A DNA stretch of 41,372 nt. It comes from Candidatus Methylomirabilota bacterium. Its GTDB lineage: Bacteria; Methylomirabilota; Methylomirabilia; Methylomirabilales; CSP1-5. Under the pieces are notes generated by a model, which was not told the DNA's origin, did not search any database, and worked only from the letters and a program-made list of their open reading frames with translations. Shown here one piece after another: positions 20,001 through 39,426 of this stretch (its first letter is position 1; every line of letters starts with the position of its first letter). The translations under genes and the position numbers were made by a program. Where the stretch lies: the NCBI GenBank assembly GCA_019456075.1, contig VRUN01000006.1, positions 1-41,372 of the forward strand, read 5' to 3'.

Positions 20001-20115
20001 CCGACTACCGACGACAGCGAAAAGCTAATAGCCCTTTCGGTCGTCGGACTTCGGCGAGCTCAGTCGAGCCGTCACCGGACATCGGTCATCGAGTTGTGTC
20101 GGTCGTCGGTCGTCG
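19974..20115. repeat. Inverted heptamer repeat array (CGACGAC units / GTCGTCG units)
   Basis: Six CGAYKAC-like units at 19974-20015, a short spacer, then about seven GTCRTCG-like units at 20040-20115. Confidence 0.8.
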
Positions 20116-20129
20116 AAATTGAGGAGATC

Positions 20130-21728
20130 ATGTACGATCTGATCATCGCCGGGGCGAGCATCATCGATGGCAGCGGATCCCCGCCTTTTCCGGGTGACAT
20201 CGGCATCATCCGGGACCGGATCGCTGCCGTCGGGAAGATCCCCGAAACCCAAGCCCGGCGGACGATTCGGGCGCCCGGGCTTGTCGCCTGTCCCGGTTTC
20301 GTGGATCTCCACTCCCACTCTGATTACTTTCTGCTGCTGAATCCCCGGGCCGAGAGCGCCGTTCGCCAGGGGGTCACCACCGAAATCGGGGGCAACTGCG
20401 GCTATTCCGCAGCGCCGATCTGGGGAGAGTGGAGAGAGGAACGTGCCCAGACCTATCGGGAACTCTATGGTCTCGAGCTCGAATGGCAGGGCGTGCGAGA
20501 TTATTTTGGGCAGCTCGCCGCCCAGGGGCTGTCGATCAACTTTGGCCTCCTCCTCGGCCACAACACCATCCGGGGCTCTGTCATGGGGGGAGCCGCAAGA
20601 CCACCCGAGGCTCGAGAGATGGAGGAGATGGTCCAGGCGGTCCGGGAGGGGATGCGGGAAGGGGCCTTGGGCCTCTCGACCGGTCTCATCTATACTCCGG
20701 CATGCTTCGCGTCATCGGAAGAGTTAGTGACGTTAGCTGGGGCTACGTGGGAAGAAGGGGGTGTGCTCACCTGCCACATGCGAAGTGAGGGGGACGGACT
20801 GTTAGAGGCGGTTCGGGAGATTCTTGATGTCGCGAGAAAGGCCCGAATCCCTCTCCAAATTTCCCATCTCAAGACATCGGGTGAGCGCAACTGGGGCAAA
20901 CTTCCGGAGGCCTTGCGACTTATTGAAGAGGCGCGGTCGCGCGGCCAGGATGTCACGGCTGATCGTTATCCCTACACGGCCTCCAATACTCAACTGCAAG
21001 CAGTCCTGCCTTCGTGGGCGCTCGAGGGAAAGCGGGTGGAACAGGTGGCTCGATTGCAGGAACCATCGGTGCGGAAACGGCTGGATCGAGAACTCGCCGA
21101 TAGGCGGTGGGACCTGATCATGATCGCCGAGGTGACGCAGGAAGGGAATACGCGGTACGAGGGATTGCGCGTCGATCAGGCGGCGGCCTTGGCCGGGAAA
21201 GACCCGTTGGAGTTCGTTTGTGACCTGCTCGTTGAAGAGGGAGGACGGGTAGACGCCATTTTCTTTACGATGTCTGAGGAGAACCTGCAGCAGATCTTGT
21301 CTCGCCCCTATGTGATGGTGGCTTCTGATAGCGGGACCCGGGCCCATGTCGGTCCGCTGAGCCGGGGTCGGCCTCATCCCCGCACGTTCGGGACGTTCCC
21401 GCGGATCTTAGGCGTGTATGTCAGGGAAAAACGACTCCTCGATCTGCCCACCGCCATCCGGAAGATGACGCTTGACCCCTGCCGTCGCTTTGGGCTTGCC
21501 GAACGGGGCCTGATTGCACCCGGCTACTCTGCCGACGTGGTCGTGTTTGATCCCGACAAGGTTGCGGATCGGGCAAGCTACGAAGAGCCGATCCAATACC
21601 CAGATGGAATTCGATACGTGCTGGTGAACGGTGTGATCAGTGTAGAAGAGGGAGAGCACACCGGTGCGAGAGCGGGCGGCGTGCTCAGGGGTTCCGGAGG
21701 CGTCACGGGGACGAGAGGTGGAGGGTAG
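20130..21728 (+). CDS. N-acyl-D-amino-acid deacylase (D-aminoacylase)
   Basis: PGFVDLHSHSD, GNCG, HMRSEG, SHLK, YPYTAS and HPRTFGTFPR; GAGGAG RBS before ATG 20130. Confidence 0.92.
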   Translation: MYDLIIAGASIIDGSGSPPFPGDIGIIRDRIAAVGKIPETQARRTIRAPGLVACPGFVDLHSHSDYFLLLNPRAESAVRQGVTTEIGGNCGYSAAPIWGEWREERAQTYRELYGLELEWQGVRDYFGQLAAQGLSINFGLLLGHNTIRGSVMGGAARPPEAREMEEMVQAVREGMREGALGLSTGLIYTPACFASSEELVTLAGATWEEGGVLTCHMRSEGDGLLEAVREILDVARKARIPLQISHLKTSGERNWGKLPEALRLIEEARSRGQDVTADRYPYTASNTQLQAVLPSWALEGKRVEQVARLQEPSVRKRLDRELADRRWDLIMIAEVTQEGNTRYEGLRVDQAAALAGKDPLEFVCDLLVEEGGRVDAIFFTMSEENLQQILSRPYVMVASDSGTRAHVGPLSRGRPHPRTFGTFPRILGVYVREKRLLDLPTAIRKMTLDPCRRFGLAERGLIAPGYSADVVVFDPDKVADRASYEEPIQYPDGIRYVLVNGVISVEEGEHTGARAGGVLRGSGGVTGTRGGG

Positions 21729-21730
21729 GG

Positions 21731-22528
21731 GTGAGCGGGCAAGAGCACGGAGTTGCTCACGGAAGGCCTTCCACACGACCTCGCATCTGTATTACCAGTG
21801 GGAGGGACCCGCTGGGCGAGCAGCCGGAGCAGCAGTACGAGCGGGTTCGTGCGGCCTACTCCGGGTGCGTGGCCGAAAGTGGCGGGATACCGTACATTTT
21901 GCCCACGCCAGGATATGATCCTGCTCTCAATGCGACATATCTCGATTTTGCCGATGGGTTGATCTTTTCGGGGGGAGAGGACATTCATCCCTCCTTTTAC
22001 GGAGAGATCGTTCTCGAAAAATGTGGAGCCATTGATGAAAAACGAGATCTCTTCGAAATCGAGCTGTTCCGGGGCGCCCTCGAGCGAGGATTGCCGGTCC
22101 TGGGCGTATGTCGGGGGATGCAGCTCATCGCAGTGGCGTTGGGAGGGAGCCTTTACCAGGACTTGTCCTATTGTCAGGACGCCGGAGCATTCCATGCCGG
22201 GGCGTGGCAAGACGGGGGAGAGATGCCATCGGTGAGACTCACATCGGGGACCCTTCTGCATCAGGTCATCGAGGAGGAGTCTCTGCCTGTCAACTGTCAG
22301 CATCATCAGTTGATCAAGGCTCTTGACCACAACTGTACGGTGAGCGCGGTCTCTCCGGATGGCATGATCGAGGGGATCGAAGTGTCAGGCAGCCCATTTG
22401 TCCTGGGGGTGCACTGGCATCCCGAGCGCTTGGCCTTACGAGATCGGTGCCATCTGGAGTTGTTCCGAGCACTGGTGAGAGCGGCGGCAGACTATTCCCG
22501 AAAAGCCGTCTCCTCGAAGCGTCCCTGA
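21731..22528 (+). CDS. Gamma-glutamyl-gamma-aminobutyrate hydrolase family (peptidase C26)
   Basis: SGGEDI, LGVCRGMQ (nucleophile Cys), HHQ and WHPE. Confidence 0.9.
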   Translation: MSGQEHGVAHGRPSTRPRICITSGRDPLGEQPEQQYERVRAAYSGCVAESGGIPYILPTPGYDPALNATYLDFADGLIFSGGEDIHPSFYGEIVLEKCGAIDEKRDLFEIELFRGALERGLPVLGVCRGMQLIAVALGGSLYQDLSYCQDAGAFHAGAWQDGGEMPSVRLTSGTLLHQVIEEESLPVNCQHHQLIKALDHNCTVSAVSPDGMIEGIEVSGSPFVLGVHWHPERLALRDRCHLELFRALVRAAADYSRKAVSSKRP

Positions 22529-22575
22529 GGAAGGGGGGCCGGATGGCAGCGGGTGGCGGGGGGTAGTAAAAACGC

Positions 22576-22605
22576 TTGACATAAAGAGGAATGGGATGAT
22601 AGGAA
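22576..22605 (+). promoter_or_regulatory. Putative sigma70 promoter of the attenuator leader
   Basis: TTGACA (22576-22581), 18 nt, TAGGAA (22600-22605) preceded by TG (extended -10). Confidence 0.5.
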
Positions 22606-22631
22606 CGACGGACACTTATAGGAGTTTATCG

Positions 22632-22703
22632 GTGGCTGGATTTGAACAGATCCTCGTAGTAGTAGGTGTACGCGGCGCCTGCGCCCCGGCGGGCAGCCCG
22701 TAG
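22632..22703 (+). CDS. Attenuator leader peptide MAGFEQILVVVGVRGACAPAGSP (23 aa)
   Basis: AGGAG at 22620-22624, GTG start 7 nt later, control tract ATC CTC GTA GTA GTA GGT GTA, TAG at 22701. Confidence 0.75.
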   Translation: MAGFEQILVVVGVRGACAPAGSP

Positions 22704-22745
22704 TGCCTTTACTGCGGGCTCTGTAATTTCGCCGCGGGGCACAGG
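22678..22745 (+). promoter_or_regulatory. Antiterminator of a ribosome-mediated attenuator
   Basis: CCTGCGCCCCGGCG (22678-22691) can pair with CGCCGCGGGGCACAGG (22730-22745), enclosing the hairpin AGCCCGTAGT/ACTGCGGGCT (22695-22720). Confidence 0.7.
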
Positions 22746-22769
22746 CAGATGTCCCGTGGCTTTTTGTTT
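22731..22769 (+). terminator. Intrinsic terminator of the attenuator
   Basis: GCCGCGGGGCA / TGTCCCGTGGC 11-bp stem (2 G-U pairs), 8-nt loop, followed by TTTTTGTTT. Confidence 0.82.
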
Positions 22770-22843
22770 GGGCCGCGGGGTCTCTTGGTTTAATGATTCG
22801 ATTTTCAACGAGGTTTGCGTCACTTTTCGGTAAGGAGGATTCG

Positions 22844-23122
22844 ATGGCTCGCAGGTGTGGTTGTGGACAAGAGTTGCGGTCGGTGATGGAGGAGTGGGGG
22901 TGTCTTCACTGTGGGGGCCTCTGTTGCCCCACCTGTGGGTATGCCCCTGAGGGCACAGCCTACTGTGCCGAATGTGCCCAGAGCCTTTTTAATGTGTACA
23001 CGAGGCAGCCGGTGGTGACCCGGCCCAAGCGCATCTCGGCCTGGTGGGAGGCGGCGACGGTGCAACCCGTGCCGCGGCATACAGAGGCGGCAAGCCTGGA
23101 CCAGCCCCAGGCGTCCGCCTGA
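22844..23122 (+). CDS. Small Cys-rich putative zinc-binding protein (92 aa), function unknown
   Basis: TAAGGAGG RBS before ATG 22844; CxC-x12-CxxC-x3-CCxxC-x9-CxxC pattern followed by a low-complexity tail. Confidence 0.8.
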   Translation: MARRCGCGQELRSVMEEWGCLHCGGLCCPTCGYAPEGTAYCAECAQSLFNVYTRQPVVTRPKRISAWWEAATVQPVPRHTEAASLDQPQASA

Positions 23123-23267
23123 CGAGCCGGTCCACACCTTCGGGGAGGCCTCGCCGAACGGGTGCGAGAGTCTCCATATGTCTATCGAGGCCCTCGACAG
23201 CACGCAGGTGTTCCGGATCCTTCCCCCTTTCCCTCCGTTTATAGCTACTCCCTCCACGAAGAAAGAT

Positions 23268-23296
23268 TTGCGCGGGAGTCGTCCTGGCCCTATCCT
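23268..23296 (+). promoter_or_regulatory. Putative sigma70 promoter
   Basis: TTGCGC-17 nt-TATCCT upstream of the 23383 gene. Confidence 0.4.
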
Positions 23297-23382
23297 GATA
23301 GCGTCGGCTGACGCCGGGGTGCCTGCCGTATCACCTCAGGCCCCTGAGCGGACCACCGACGCGTGAATGAAGGAGGCAGGGG

Positions 23383-23805
23383 ATGAATCTCATTCAGCGA
23401 TGTGTCGCCAGTATTGCTCTCTTGCTGCTCCTGGTCGTCTCCGCCCATGCCCAAAAACGCCCTTCGGAAAAGAATCTCGGTGCCCCCATTTATCCGAAGG
23501 CCACGTTCATCGAAAGCTTCACCGACGGGCCGGTGGCCCGATATCTCTTCGGCTCGAACGATATCACCATTTCGGTGACCCGGTTTTATGAAGCGAAGAT
23601 CGGGAAGAAATCTGAACGCATCAAAAGTCCCGACGGGACGGAGACGTATCGGTTCGTACTGAAAGGCAAACAGGAGGCAGCGGTGCCGGAACTCGAGGTT
23701 CGGGTGAATCACTTTCCCGGGGGCTTCCACATCCCGGATCAGCGGGGCGAGACCCGACGGTACAGGACGGTCATCATCATCAGCAAGAAGAAGAGGGAAC
23801 CGTGA
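23383..23805 (+). CDS. Exported hypothetical protein
   Basis: AAGGAGG RBS; signal peptide ending AHA; LGAPIYPKATF...VTRFYEAK. Confidence 0.75.
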   Translation: MNLIQRCVASIALLLLLVVSAHAQKRPSEKNLGAPIYPKATFIESFTDGPVARYLFGSNDITISVTRFYEAKIGKKSERIKSPDGTETYRFVLKGKQEAAVPELEVRVNHFPGGFHIPDQRGETRRYRTVIIISKKKREP

Positions 23806-23849
23806 CAGAACCTGGGTCCTGCCCTCCTCAAGGCCCACGGGAGGCCGCA

Positions 23850-24647
23850 ATGTTTGTACCGTCCAAAGCTCATCCAAAAGAGATGCGGGAAAAGATTCGG
23901 ACCGGCGAGTGGCAAGACCCCACAGCTGGATGCTCGGACGGCTACGTGCAGGCCAATCTGGTGGTCCTGCCAAAAGCCCTGGCCTACGATTTCCTTCTCT
24001 TCTGTCACCGCAATCCTAAGCCCTGCCCGTTACTGGAGGTCACCGATCCCGGTGACGCGGAGCCCAAGACCGCTGCGCCCAGTGCAGACCTTCGGACTGA
24101 TATTCCCAGGTACCGGGTTTACCGCGGCGGCAAGCTGGAGCAGGAGGTGACCGATCTTCTTCAGGTCTGGCGGACAGACCTGGTGGGCTTCCTCTTGGGC
24201 TGTAGCTTCACCTTCGATGTCGCTCTGCACAGGGCGGGCGTCCCGGTCCGTCATCTTGAGGAGGGGAAAAACGTCTCGATGTATATGACGAATCAGTCGT
24301 GCCATCCTGCTGGGGATTTCACCGGACCTCTGGTGGTCTCCATGCGCCCGATCCCGGCCCATCTCGTCCCTCGGGCGGTGGAAGTCACCGCTCGCTTCCC
24401 GCTGTCTCATGGGGCCCCGGTTCATGTGGGCGAGCCCGAGACGATCGGCATTGCCGATCTCGGTCGACCCCACTTTGGCGATGCGGTCTCGATCCGGTCG
24501 GGTGAGATTCCGGTCTTTTGGGCCTGTGGTGTGACGCCACAGGCCGTCGCCATGCATGCGAAGCCGGAGTTCATGATCACCCATGCTCCCGGTCACATGT
24601 TCATTACCGACCTGCCTGAGGAAGAGTTAACCCACTCTCTCGCGTAA
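23850..24647 (+). CDS. DUF1445 putative hydro-lyase (D-glutamate cyclase-like, YcsI family)
   Basis: GYVQANLV, RNPKPCPLL, DLRTDIPRY, GCSFTF, VVSMRP, FWACGVTPQ and THAPGHMFITD; GGAGG before ATG 23850 (alternative GTG 23802). Confidence 0.92.
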   Translation: MFVPSKAHPKEMREKIRTGEWQDPTAGCSDGYVQANLVVLPKALAYDFLLFCHRNPKPCPLLEVTDPGDAEPKTAAPSADLRTDIPRYRVYRGGKLEQEVTDLLQVWRTDLVGFLLGCSFTFDVALHRAGVPVRHLEEGKNVSMYMTNQSCHPAGDFTGPLVVSMRPIPAHLVPRAVEVTARFPLSHGAPVHVGEPETIGIADLGRPHFGDAVSIRSGEIPVFWACGVTPQAVAMHAKPEFMITHAPGHMFITDLPEEELTHSLA

Positions 24648-24750
24648 AACGCGCCGGGTTCCCCAGACGGGGAATTGCCCATTGCGGCTCTCCGTTCAGT
24701 CAACCTGCGTACGGATGGCCTTCCCTGCGCTCACGCTGAGAAGCTTGTTC

Positions 24751-24793
24751 TGGACGATGTCCGCATCCCTGGGTATACTCTTTCAATAGAGTA
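24751..24793 (+). promoter_or_regulatory. Putative promoter with overlapping inverted repeat
   Basis: TGGACG-17 nt-TATACT (24774-24779), overlapped by TACTCT-n6-AGAGTA (24776-24793). Confidence 0.45.
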
Positions 24794-24849
24794 ACGGACG
24801 TGCGCGTTTGGCGGCGGTAGACCCCCACTCGTATTGGCGAGGGCAACGG

Positions 24850-26826
24850 ATGACGACGATCGGCGTGGACGTGGGGGGGACCTTCACCGACCTGGTCTTT
24901 TTGGCCGAGGGGAGACTCTGGACCCGGAAGGTTCTTTCGACTCCTCACGACCCGGCCTGGGGTGTGCTTCAGGGACTTTCTCAGGAAGCTTTGGGAGAGG
25001 GGAGATGGCAGCTTGTCCATGGCTCCACCGTGGCGACTAACGCGCTGCTCGAGCGGAAGGGGGCCAAGGTCGCCTTGATCACCACGGCGGGTTTCGAAGA
25101 TGTGCTCGAGATCGGCCGCCAGGATCGAGCCGGGTTGTACGATTTTTTTATCGATCGGGCACCAGTCCTGGTCCCCCGTGCTCACCGTATCGGCGTCCCG
25201 GAGCGGATGGACTGCCGAGGGAGGGTCCTGGAGCCCCTCGATGATGAGAGCCTCGATCCCATCTTGGACCGGCTGAGTCAGGAGGGTGTCGAGTCGATCG
25301 CCATTTGCCTTCTCTGTTCCTATGCGAATCCTGTCCATGAGGCCCGCATCCTTCATCGGGCCTTGCGGATTGGAGTGCCGGTCTCTGCCTCTCATCGCAT
25401 CCTCCCCGAGTACCGAGAGTACGAACGGTGCATGGCCACCGTCGTGAACGCCTATGTCTCGCCCCTGATGGAACGGTACCTCGGTCGGCTCGAGGCAGAG
25501 CTCGGGGGAGGACGTCTCAGGATCATGCAGTCCAATGGCGGAAGTATCTCTGCGGCCACGGCGCGGCAGGAGGCGGTGCGGACCATTCTCTCGGGCCCGG
25601 CGGGGGGGGTTGTGGGTGCCGCCTCCATCGCGAGGGAGGCTGGATTTGAGAAAGTGATCACGTTTGATATGGGGGGAACCTCTACCGATGTCTCCCTCGT
25701 CGATGGTGGTCTCAGGGTCAGCACAGAGGCTACGGTGGGGGACATCCCCCTTCGCATTCCCCTCCTCGACATCCATACGGTGGGCTCAGGCGGTGGATCA
25801 TTAGCCTGGATCGATGAGGGGGGCGCCCTGCGCGTAGGCCCCCGGAGCGCCGGGGCCGATCCCGGGCCGGTCTGCTACGGGCGGGGAGACCAGATCACCG
25901 TCACGGATGCACACCTCGCGCTGGGACGTTTGGAACCGGACCGATTCCTCGGCGGGAAGATGCGGCTTGATGTGGAGCGGGCCGAGGGCGCCTTACAGGC
26001 CTTCTCCCGCCAGGTGAACATGGACTCTCTCCGACTGGCGGAAGGGATCGTCACGGTGGCCACTGCCACCATGGAGAAGGCCATCCGGGTCATTTCCGTG
26101 GAGCGAGGGTATGATCCCCGAGAATTCTGCCTGGTCTCTTTTGGCGGGGCAGGAGGACTGCACGCCTGTGCCCTGGCTCGATCACTGTCCATCCCCTGGG
26201 TGCTGGTTCCGCCGCACGCAGGGCTGCTGTCGGCCTACGGGATGTTGGTGGCTGATGTGGTCAAGGAGTACGCCAAGACGATCTTGCGGCCGACGGCCAC
26301 CACACCCTTCGAGGAGCTGGAGGCCGTTGTGAGCCTCCTGAGGGAACAAGGCCTGCGTGAGATGAAAGATGAGGGGATAGCGGAGGAGTCGGTCAGCACG
26401 GAAGCCTCCCTGGACATGCGCTACCTGGGGCAGTCCTACGAGCTCCGCGTCCCCTTCGGAAGAGACTTTGTCTCTCGGTTCCACGACGTGCACCGGAAGA
26501 GTTACGGCTACGCCAATCCGGCCCGGGAGACCGAGATTGTGACGGGACGCCTTCGGGTCAGGGGGGAAGTCGAGGGCCCACCCCTTCCTGAGGTGGAGGC
26601 GGGATCGGCGGATCCTGGTGCAGCCTGCCTGGGCGAGAAGCAGGTCTTTCTCGAGGACGGCTGGGTCACGGCTCCTGTCTTCGCCCGAGAGACTCTGCAG
26701 GCTGCCAACCGGATCGATGGGCCAGCCCTCGTGGTAGAGATGAGCGCCACCACGCTGATTGCACCGGGTTGGGAGGGGGAGGTGGACGAGCGGGGTAATC
26801 TTCTTCTCAAAACGCGCCAGCCCTGA
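24850..26826 (+). CDS. Hydantoinase A / 5-oxoprolinase family ATP-binding subunit
   Basis: GVDVGGTFTD, HGSTVATNALLER, LSGPAGGV, DMGGTSTD, SAGADPGP and FGGAGGLHA. Confidence 0.93.
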   Translation: MTTIGVDVGGTFTDLVFLAEGRLWTRKVLSTPHDPAWGVLQGLSQEALGEGRWQLVHGSTVATNALLERKGAKVALITTAGFEDVLEIGRQDRAGLYDFFIDRAPVLVPRAHRIGVPERMDCRGRVLEPLDDESLDPILDRLSQEGVESIAICLLCSYANPVHEARILHRALRIGVPVSASHRILPEYREYERCMATVVNAYVSPLMERYLGRLEAELGGGRLRIMQSNGGSISAATARQEAVRTILSGPAGGVVGAASIAREAGFEKVITFDMGGTSTDVSLVDGGLRVSTEATVGDIPLRIPLLDIHTVGSGGGSLAWIDEGGALRVGPRSAGADPGPVCYGRGDQITVTDAHLALGRLEPDRFLGGKMRLDVERAEGALQAFSRQVNMDSLRLAEGIVTVATATMEKAIRVISVERGYDPREFCLVSFGGAGGLHACALARSLSIPWVLVPPHAGLLSAYGMLVADVVKEYAKTILRPTATTPFEELEAVVSLLREQGLREMKDEGIAEESVSTEASLDMRYLGQSYELRVPFGRDFVSRFHDVHRKSYGYANPARETEIVTGRLRVRGEVEGPPLPEVEAGSADPGAACLGEKQVFLEDGWVTAPVFARETLQAANRIDGPALVVEMSATTLIAPGWEGEVDERGNLLLKTRQP

Positions 26827-35715: not shown

Positions 35716-35731
35716 GCAAGGGTCGTGCCAA
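35716..35731 (-). promoter_or_regulatory. Sigma54 promoter of the PilZ gene
   Basis: Minus strand TTGGCACGACCCTTGC, 34 nt upstream of the ATG. Confidence 0.78.
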
Positions 35732-37377: not shown

Positions 37378-37394
37378 TTGGCACTGAAGTTGCT
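37378..37394 (+). promoter_or_regulatory. Sigma54 promoter upstream of pfk
   Basis: TTGGCACTGAAGTTGCT with exact GG-n10-GC spacing. Confidence 0.7.
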
Positions 37395-38806: not shown

Positions 38807-39250
38807 GCCGGAGTGGGCCGGGTGGTCGCTCCGATCTGTAGATCGGGGAGGAAAGTCCGGACTCCGCAGGGCAGGGTGGTGGGTAACGCCCACCGGGGGT
38901 AACCCCAGGGAAAGTGCCACAGAAAATATACCTCCCCGCCGGCAGCCTTTGCTCTCTTGCTTCAAAAAGGCTGTCCGCGGGGTAAGGGTGAAAAGGTGCG
39001 GTAAGAGCGCACCAGCAGTCCGGTGACGGGCTGGCTTGGCAAACCCCACCCGGAGCAAGGCCAAATAGGTTCCGCTTCCTTGCTGTCGTTCATCGAGCGA
39101 GGGCGAGGATGAGAGCGGCCCGCTTTCATGGCCAGAAAGGCAGGCGGAACGGGTAGGCCGCTAGAGTCCCGCAGCAATGCGGGACCCAGAGGAATGATCA
39201 CCCTTCGCCTGCGGGCGAAGACAGAATCCGGCTTACAGGCCCACTCCGGC
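38807..39250 (+). ncRNA. rnpB: RNase P RNA, bacterial type A
   Basis: GAGGAAAGTCCGG, AGTGCCACAGAAA, GGGTGAAAAGGTGCGGTAAGAGCGCACC, AAACCC and ACAGAATCCGGCTTA; terminal P1 GCCGGAGTGGGCC/GGCCCACTCCGGC. Confidence 0.97.
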
Positions 39251-39426
39251 CTACATTATATTTATAGTCCTTCTCCCTTCCTGTTCCCCCCCAGACGGTC
39301 CCCACCGGTCTTCTCTCGGCGTTTCAGGGGCATTTCCTGATGCAAGCGGCTGGAAACGTGTCGTTTGCGGAGAGCCAGATCTGATGGGACAGAGGCGAAG
39401 GGAGGGAGGCCGAATTTTGACAGAGG

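Follow-up and report, generated by a model that had tools for sequence, protein, structure and literature searches.

The window analyzed here comprises 41,372 nucleotides (nt), positions 1 to 41,372 of contig VRUN01000006.1 (forward strand), from a Candidatus Methylomirabilota bacterium (assembly GCA_019456075.1). At 22576-22770, 5' of a gene for a 92-amino-acid, Cys-rich protein, it carries an element that is likely a ribosome-mediated leader-peptide transcription attenuator and that is one copy of a homologous family. The computed support comprises the sequence elements themselves, their conservation and covariation, a fold that depends on the position of the ribosome, and a match between codon window and target gene in 60 family members. 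An earlier note had considered this single locus and read it as an attenuator; that reading stands, whereas membership of a family with other targets had been missed.

Parts of the leader element and their conservation

The element is made up of the following parts, in which codons are numbered relative to codon 0 of the family alignment unless counted from the leader start.

22576-22581, + strand: -35 hexamer TTGACA of the leader transcript, read from the sequence and conserved in relatives
22620-22624, + strand: Shine-Dalgarno (SD) sequence AGGAG, 7 nt 5' of the leader start codon
22632-22703, + strand: leader open reading frame (ORF) MAGFEQILVVVGVRGACAPAGSP, with GTG start at 22632, 23 codons, and TAG at 22701-22703
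22650-22670, + strand: regulatory codon window, codons -9 to -3, ATC CTC GTA GTA GTA GGT GTA (ILVVVGV)
22678-22693, + strand: hairpin H1, inside the leader frame (RNAalifold consensus); its 5' arm, 22678-22687, doubles as the antiterminator 5' strand
22695-22720, + strand: hairpin H2 over the leader stop codon, 11 pairs in the terminator scan
22677-22746, + strand: antiterminator, with outer strands 22678-22687 and 22736-22745 plus inner pairs, enclosing H2
22731-22770, + strand: intrinsic terminator from the terminator scan, with stem 22731-22760 and then U-tract TTTTTGTTTG
22770-22781, + strand: repeat of the terminator 5' arm, GGGCCGCGGGG, which can pair with the terminator 3' arm (hairpin 22751-22781)

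All of the attenuator parts listed in the earlier note (promoter, AGGAG with GTG, 23-amino-acid leader, hairpins, antiterminator, and terminator with U-tract) were present, with small corrections of coordinates such as those of the leader, given above. Its antiterminator, drawn at 22678-22691 with 22730-22745, was computed at 22677-22746; both the nascent transcript 22608-22750 and the shorter piece 22672-22750 adopt it as their fold of lowest energy. The antiterminator is incompatible with H1 and with the terminator, and strand 22731-22746 is common to antiterminator and terminator. Region 22600-22790 was more stable than 200 of 200 shuffled sequences (z = -3.2), and the terminator scan of 21500-24500 returned 6 sites, compared with 2.5 ± 2.0 in shuffles.

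In the mechanism that we propose, transcription would start from the TTGACA promoter and a ribosome would translate the 23-codon leader close behind the polymerase. A delay of the ribosome at the rare GUA Val codons (plus Ile and Leu; 22650-22670) would leave strand 22678-22687 free to pair with 22736-22745, in the terminator 5' arm. The terminator would then be blocked, and the polymerase would continue into the Cys-rich gene and probably also into the hydro-lyase and hydantoinase genes that follow. With fast decoding, the ribosome would lie on 22678-22703 and cover the antiterminator strand, and the terminator at 22731-22770 would form and end the transcript.

All four Val codons of the leader are GTA (22656-22664 and 22668-22670). 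This codon, which had been judged uncommon by eye, makes up 7.7% of Val codons when 521 long ORFs from this assembly (60% G+C) are counted; assuming independent codons, the chance of finding GTA four times out of four is ∼3.5e-5. The -35 is conserved: CTTGACA is kept in 16 of 16 orthologous leaders, and TTGACA is present 5' of 55 of 61 family leaders, the remaining 6 having TTGAC[GT]. A sigma-70 consensus scan of 21500-24500 listed no promoter at all, and the leader promoter escaped it because the -10 is weak in this genome.

To follow the element across relatives, we aligned the 400 nt 5' of the 14 Cys-rich genes of the genus. Promoter, SD, start, frame, stop, and the three hairpins were kept in 14/14 genus orthologues and in 2/2 from another family, whose two genomes carry the same leader (MMRSLFSYVVGVCGVCPRAGGP, MQLLSSYVVDVCGVCPRAGRP) 5' of their Cys-rich gene. 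An AGGAG-like box followed by GTG or ATG occupied the same position in the 14 genus orthologues, the leader stop was TAG or TAA in the 14 aligned copies, and the U-tract was also kept, while the sequence 5' of the promoter and the flanks were unalignable. The leader frame was open in 16/16 orthologues, with every indel a multiple of 3. The upstream ORF and stems that the earlier note had suggested looking for 5' of homologues are therefore conserved in all 16.

Covariation figures were taken from the 60-sequence family alignment described below; they are generous, since the genomes are kin and the alignment was fitted to the model structure. Within these bounds, the three hairpins were paired in 92.9% of cells, versus 43-52% when the partners were slid, and 14 of 25 hairpin pairs showed two-sided changes. 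The H1 helix was paired in 91.6% of cells, all 7 pairs of the H2 helix had changed on both sides, and the terminator helix was paired in 95.9% of cells, with two-sided changes in 5 of 11 pairs. For the antiterminator we counted pairs from sequence anchors, because terminator arms with four and with five G align one column apart in the alignment; five or so mis-anchored rows were counted as they fell. The antiterminator register was paired in 82% of cells versus 42-51% at shifts of 1 to 3 (55 distinct strand pairs), and one of its positions was found as G-C (28), G-U (7), C-G (6), or U-G (1).

Downstream of the terminator, a second hairpin with its U-run is intact in ∼20 of 60 family members (for example, L003, L006, L062, L065, L086, and L087), and its arms duplicate those of the first terminator. 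At our locus only the 5' arm is left, so that 22770-22781 reads as the remnant of a tandem second terminator that is intact in some relatives. A chain of pairing, from the antiterminator to the terminator 3' arm with the repeat, may open both terminators, which we put forward as an idea only.

Family members, their codon windows, and their target genes

We built a covariance model (R1) from 16 leaders. Of 66 genomes in the order, 40 had R1 matches (one to four copies each); none of 108 genomes from four other sampled families of the phylum had any under strict filters (E ≤ 0.001). The family alignment (A3) contains 60 matches from 61 loci; the weak member L085 was removed by the E-value threshold, which also removed six antisense or partial terminator matches. 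Two contributing genomes are unpublished, G006 (locus L011, class A, in alignment A1, R1, and A3) and G021 (locus L089, malate-synthase type, in A3 and R2); leaving them out would alter no count by more than one, and none of our conclusions depends on these two alone. A broader model built from the 60 members (R2) was run on five genomes, where all 12 matches were already known and no further targets appeared. In Rfam 15, no family matched 22400-23400 at the gathering score, amino-acid leaders, T-box, and riboswitches included, and at E ≤ 10 there were two chance-level matches, ncS037 (17.6 bits, threshold 112) and HOTAIR_2.

The first genes downstream of the leaders were identified with Pfam and NCBIfam on representatives, and the other loci were assigned by tblastn.

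20 leaders: DAHP synthase (PF00793 plus ferredoxin-like domain PF18152)
20 leaders: Cys-rich gene
9 leaders: acyl-CoA dehydrogenase, with a methylmalonyl-CoA-mutase-family protein behind it and, at the loci examined for it, a thiolase after that
3 leaders: malate-synthase-like protein
2 leaders: class-V aminotransferase
2 leaders (L060, L063): ABM-domain protein
2 leaders: sigma-54 activator, followed at one locus by the Cys-rich gene
2 leaders: contig end before any gene

DAHP synthase leaders are represented in 6 of 7 families of the order and Val-type leaders in four. At L063, the sole ABM locus with enough downstream sequence, the next genes encode a 4Fe-4S ferredoxin and an aldehyde:ferredoxin oxidoreductase.

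The genome under study has a second copy of the element on contig 32 (42378-42531, minus strand, loci L022/L096; R1 match 42378-42524), with leader MQSWFMSSIVVVRFSGLCPRRGGR. It precedes genes for an acyl-CoA dehydrogenase (385 amino acids) and a methylmalonyl-CoA-mutase-family protein, with thiolase next in a congener. A third R1 match in this genome, C65 (E 0.34), was rejected as a leader: it consists of the 3' end of a chaperonin-like gene and a terminator.

The switch RNA itself is near-constant in 60 of 60 members, from the antiterminator strand (consensus GGCGUCUGCCC) to terminator GCCACGGGG(G)CAGAC ... CCCCGUGGC with its U-run. A frame-0 ORF is present in 57 of the 60, ending 8 to 12 codons past codon 0. 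What varies with the downstream gene is the codon window. All 20 DAHP synthase leaders had at least 3 Phe, Trp, or Tyr codons in the window, which was the case for 0 of the 40 others; these leaders contain 3 to 6 Phe/Tyr/Trp codons, and their windows are 70% Phe/Trp/Tyr and 1% Val. Conversely, at least 2 Val codons were found in the window of 19 of 20 Cys-gene leaders versus 0 of 20 DAHP synthase leaders, the Cys-gene windows being 45% Val. The exception, L047, carries a Val run (GTC GTC GTA GCC GT.) that is shifted by one base relative to the frame of its V-C-P tail, through either a real frame difference or an assembly indel. Acyl-CoA dehydrogenase leaders have the window I-V-V-V-x-F. As the switch is constant and the window is target specific, the family behaves as a series of natural codon swaps in an attenuator responsive to amino acids.

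Codon choice within the windows was biased as well. In non-aromatic windows, 80 of 112 Val codons are GTA, versus 7.7% in the genome under study, and in Cys-gene windows the count is 53 of 62 (19 frame-0 leaders, L047 left out). Phe is encoded by TTT in 41 of 49 cases in aromatic windows, to be set against 41.5% TTT in the genome under study, a comparison made across genomes. The two leaders before a class-V aminotransferase, L054 and L059, have Gly-rich windows (GIGVGSG and GTGVGSG); the best NCBIfam match of the aminotransferase, below threshold, is aspartate-glyoxylate aminotransferase BhcA, and these copies are possibly glycine responsive.

We also considered that the small frame might encode a functional peptide, either a modified-peptide precursor or a Pro-stop arrest peptide, with the terminator setting the ratio of peptide to protein. 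Indeed, most of the 60 members have a similar tail (x-G-V-C-P-x-x-G-G), with the stop at a fixed distance; the conserved tail reads G-V-C-P-x-A-G-G-P-stop, ends in Pro-stop in 15 of 16 class A leaders, and in the Cys-gene class is never closed by TGA. However, the tail coincides with H1, the antiterminator strand, and H2, and the codon that varies in it forms the loop of H1. Codon 0 begins with G, C, or U, and this base covaries at the RNA level with the base that it pairs with next to the terminator loop (G-C, C-G, or U-G). Moreover, L060 and L063 retain the same switch RNA read in another frame, with leader MRNGRLQESRLSGIVIIQRRRLPSGRRLRR, an Ile/Val run (IVII) in the window, and RRLPSGRRLRR in place of the tail. 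Pro-stop is confined to one class; in the others the last residue is R, A, T, S, V, or C. The neighborhood of the leaders holds no conserved modifying enzyme, and the systematic variation with the downstream gene sits in the window before the tail rather than in the tail. We therefore hold a functional peptide to be very improbable and retain the attenuator as the explanation of the small frame.

Ribosome position and the predicted fold

When the complete terminator was included, folding at equilibrium always gave the terminator and was uninformative on the switch. We folded transcripts that end before the terminator 3' arm, and represented the ribosome by masking 31 nt, an assumed footprint that reaches from -18 to +12 relative to the first nucleotide in the A site. 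The analysis covered 57 leaders (L060, L063, and L047, which differ in frame, were omitted), and the antiterminator was scored as formed at ≥ 6 expected pairs. The antiterminator was predicted in 46 to 56 of the 57 leaders for A-site positions from codon -11 to codon -4, in 26/57 for codon -3, and in 0/57 for codons -2 to +7. For the leader at our locus, masked folding predicted the antiterminator for codons 1 to 11, and lost it from codon 12 or 13 on. In these models, the target-dependent codon window would thus be exactly the stretch where a stalled ribosome frees the antiterminator. The earlier note had argued that a Val stall frees the antiterminator and that an advanced ribosome covers it, and both the comparative data and the masked folding agree.

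Several observations weigh against a ribosome-mediated attenuator responding to Val. Ribosome-free nascent RNA was also predicted to adopt the antiterminator, with a mean of 7.3 expected pairs, and therefore no state in which absence of translation means "off" is predicted. In members with longer tails, the antiterminator re-formed with the ribosome at the stop, in 9 of 16 leaders with the stop at +10 and in 7 of 8 at +11. A transcript of our leader beginning at 22621 folded differently, and we count the assumed footprint on this side as well, together with the generous covariation figures. Some orthologues, L008 for example, retain only two Val codons in the window. RNA-library contigs from four runs, belonging to relatives 90-99% alike, cover 22621-22773 and parts of the downstream genes; they give no ends, strand, or level, and DNA carry-over is possible. 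They were matched at 90% likeness with word shares of 0.06-0.15, and we drew no conclusion from them. Finally, the targets are not genes of valine biosynthesis, which leaves the physiological sense of a Val signal unexplained.

The folding of ribosome-free RNA bears on the possibility of a riboswitch, or of an attenuator that binds a protein, in which the small frame would be incidental or have a tuning role. The RNA core is very strongly conserved, and, with the antiterminator predicted without a ribosome, a factor might be required to favor the terminator. On the other hand, the ORF, its SD, and its start are conserved with in-frame indels only, and the codon window follows the downstream gene. 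Beyond three simple hairpins there is no conserved unpaired pocket or multi-helix junction, and no Rfam family matches. A riboswitch or protein-bound leader thus appears very improbable to us, and leader-peptide attenuation remains the preferred reading.

Within that reading, the physiological signal would be valyl-tRNA charging, and we infer that read-through increases upon starvation. The same architecture could work with another sign or signal: the GUA codons might gauge translation speed or the state of tRNA-Val(UAC), or the switch might be on when valine is plentiful. The latter sign would suit catabolic targets such as acyl-CoA dehydrogenase and the methylmalonyl-CoA-mutase-family enzyme, and the Val-type targets do resemble catabolic or central carbon enzymes and not ilv genes. 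In addition, the antiterminator strand is already half covered when the ribosome reaches codon -3, the end of the window (26/57), and tRNA-Val(UAC) and tRNA-Val(GAC) are both among the 31 tRNAs found in the genome. Against this, the aromatic-codon switch precedes DAHP synthase in 20 of 20 cases, where only "starvation = on" makes sense, and the antiterminator was predicted for stalls at codons -11 to -4. We consequently regard another sign or signal as improbable and proceed with starvation-induced read-through.

Genes probably under control, the Cys-rich protein, and known attenuators

The attenuator is followed by these genes.

22844-23122, + strand: Cys-rich gene, 92 amino acids, nine Cys, with ribosome-binding site AAGGAGGA at 22832-22839
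23383-23805, + strand: 140-amino-acid signal-peptide protein, a probable member of the transcription unit
23802-24647, + strand: PF07286 hydro-lyase, also above the cut-off for the NCBIfam "putative hydro-lyase", a probable member of the transcription unit
24808-26826, + strand: hydantoinase/oxoprolinase A, a probable member of the transcription unit

To the earlier note, the gene after the Cys-rich one (23383) appeared to have its own promoter. The scan found neither a promoter-like nor a terminator-like site in 22784-23526, which makes co-transcription of the Cys-rich gene with the 140-amino-acid, hydro-lyase, and hydantoinase genes plausible, and at least as likely as a separate promoter. 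The sigma-70 scan was silent over the whole of 21500-24500, and therefore neither supports nor refutes such a promoter. Across the window, the sigma-54 -24/-12 pattern gave 32 matches versus 32 expected with two mismatches allowed; within 22500-23400 there was none, save a 2-mismatch site inside the 140-amino-acid gene. Perfect sigma-54 matches (TGGCAC-N5-TTGC) lie at 35716-35730 (minus strand) and 37379-37393 (+ strand), the total for the window being at chance level. The window also contains a bacterial RNase P RNA of class A at 38810-39251 (+ strand; 320 bits, full length).

The attenuator stands within an amide/gamma-glutamyl cluster (20094-22528 and 23802-26826) composed of amidohydrolase family 3, a peptidase C26 gamma-glutamyl hydrolase-like protein, the PF07286 D-glutamate-cyclase-family hydro-lyase, and hydantoinase/oxoprolinase A. 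As had been noticed, the target is not an ilv or leu gene: canonical ilvC and ilvD are present on other contigs, and neither the ilvB-N-C-type cluster nor ilvD has such a leader in its own genome. The sequence upstream of the ilvBNC-type operon (C51) does contain TTGACA and a small ORF; it lacks a terminator and any run of Val, Leu, or Ile codons, and both are likewise missing upstream of ilvD. The customary match of controlled genes to the sensed amino acid is thus absent for this copy and present in the aromatic copies (20/20). Such a match is customary rather than mechanistic, and its absence therefore weakens the case for a classical biosynthetic attenuator but not the case that the element works as an attenuator. 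We ruled out that the leader is a relic of a lost ilv operon, since the gene order peptidase C26-leader-Cys gene is genus-wide and no relative has ilv genes here.

The description of the Cys-rich gene as an orphan did not hold. Matches to its protein were found in 26 of 41 related genomes, among them 13 of 13 congeners, with relatives in other families, and the PF07286 hydro-lyase comes after the Cys gene at 13 of the 14 loci of the genus, as it does at 2 of 4 loci from another family. Related proteins are labeled, for example, Candidatus Methylomirabilales bacterium and candidate division NC10. Across 25 sequences representing four families, nine Cys never vary (C5, C7, C20, C23, C27, C28, C31, C41, and C44); they fall within 44 residues, mostly as CxC or CxxC pairs. 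Pfam and NCBIfam contain no family for the protein. The AlphaFold model is confident for residues 1-50 only (pLDDT 78-90), and Foldseek found a weak likeness to FYVE, LIM, PHD, and RING domains (best E 0.097, TM 0.33-0.42), with probabilities up to 0.97 for FYVE domains at those weak E-values. The protein shares paired-Cys knuckles with the two-zinc treble-clef and cross-brace fingers (FYVE, LIM, PHD, RING, and B-box), FYVE and LIM being the top fold matches, and differs from these families in having no Pfam or NCBIfam match. With E-values at or nearly at 0.1 and above and TM scores this low, a fold relationship to the named fingers is not established. The ESM Atlas placed the protein among clusters of hypothetical proteins from Methylomirabilota and Rokubacteria, of which the largest has 1442 members, and neighbors with DUF2180, B-box, and Prok-RING_2 provided leads. 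The N-terminal ∼50 residues are probably a two-zinc finger, and the product may accordingly be a metal-binding effector.

Some gene contexts hint at the role of this protein. In two genomes (L017 and L018), the Cys-rich domain is a C-terminal extension of the beta subunit of a PorB/VorB-type 2-oxoacid:ferredoxin oxidoreductase; at these fusion loci the alpha subunit is encoded upstream and a universal stress protein downstream. An isocitrate lyase (TIGR01346, above cut-off) follows the Cys-rich gene in one genome, and a CitE/malyl-CoA-lyase-like protein does so in two. In one genome the Cys-rich gene lies between a sigma-54 activator and a crotonyl-CoA carboxylase/reductase (TIGR01751, above cut-off). 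Most likely, the product would be a small two-zinc-finger protein in 2-oxoacid/C2-assimilation metabolism or its regulation, which is the weakest step of our argument. The Val-type leaders before the malate-synthase-like gene and before the acyl-CoA dehydrogenase/mutase/thiolase operon also lie behind this metabolic reading; taken with the Cys-gene contexts, they may point to acetyl-CoA, glyoxylate, and 2-oxoacid metabolism, which is our boldest reading and not a finding.

Attenuation by leader peptides is a textbook mechanism that has been described mainly in Proteobacteria and Actinobacteria; the family reported here is well supported and belongs to the NC10/Methylomirabilota lineage, in which uncultured members dominate. 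In Escherichia coli, the branched-chain leaders ilvL (ilvGMEDA), ivbL (ilvBN), and leuL (leu) are leader-peptide attenuators, and the control run of leuL uses rare CUA codons. Our element resembles these leaders in having a translated leader, a regulatory codon run, alternative hairpins, and an intrinsic terminator before the first gene, and in the use of rare synonymous control codons (CUA in leuL, GUA in 80 of 112 cases here). It differs from them in showing no Rfam or sequence relation, in targeting the operon of a Cys-rich microprotein, and in having 2 to 4 Val codons only. The antiterminator strand also lies inside the leader frame, 3' of the control codons, and what sequesters it is a local hairpin formed with a partner further downstream, not an upstream "segment 1" as in the E. 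coli leaders. No superattenuated state is predicted here. With respect to the trp paradigm, there are two departures, namely, the antiterminator predicted without a ribosome and its re-formation at the stop in 10- or 11-codon tails.

In T-box elements, a terminator/antiterminator scaffold is reused across operons, a specifier codon sets the specificity, and uncharged tRNA is bound without translation. The likeness to our family is an analogy of design and not of membership: one scaffold stands before many operons with an exchangeable codon element, here a 7-codon window. In contrast to the T-box, our element has a translated frame, no T-box motifs, and no Rfam T-box match.

The aromatic members have a counterpart in aroR-aroF of Corynebacterium glutamicum, where, according to the review PMC11802643, which cites Neshat et al. 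2014, a Phe-Tyr-Phe leader precedes a DAHP synthase gene and stalling there enhances transcription. Our aromatic leaders, with Phe/Tyr/Trp codons before DAHP synthase, follow the same logic as described in that review (PMC11802643), but they come from another phylum and are likened by that described logic, not by sequence. The NC10-type aromatic leaders share the whole switch with the Val-type copy, a feature that is not reported for aroR. In the full-text literature on Methylomirabilis and Methylomirabilota, no description of such an attenuator family was found among the matches listed. The mechanism itself, leader-peptide attenuation, is already known; what is new is the lineage, one homologous switch with exchangeable codon windows, and a Val version on non-ilv genes, including that of a zinc-finger-like microprotein.

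The ∼60 natural variants, in which the codon window alone changes with the regulated gene, constitute a ready-made mutational series for attenuator specificity, and the covariance models could serve to annotate such leaders in metagenome-assembled genomes. Control of the Cys-rich microprotein by the Val version provides a testable handle on the protein, as induction is expected when valine decoding slows. At its widest, the family might represent a T-box counterpart that is coupled to translation: one portable promoter-leader-terminator cassette whose 7-codon window can be exchanged. The Val version would then be a feast/famine sensor linking valyl-tRNA charging to acetyl-CoA, glyoxylate, and 2-oxoacid metabolism, with the Cys-rich microprotein as a new zinc-finger regulator or accessory subunit. 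This wider proposal is tentative and, as a whole, rather unlikely. The Val version also invites one to ask whether these bacteria steer their central carbon metabolism by the status of branched-chain amino acids.

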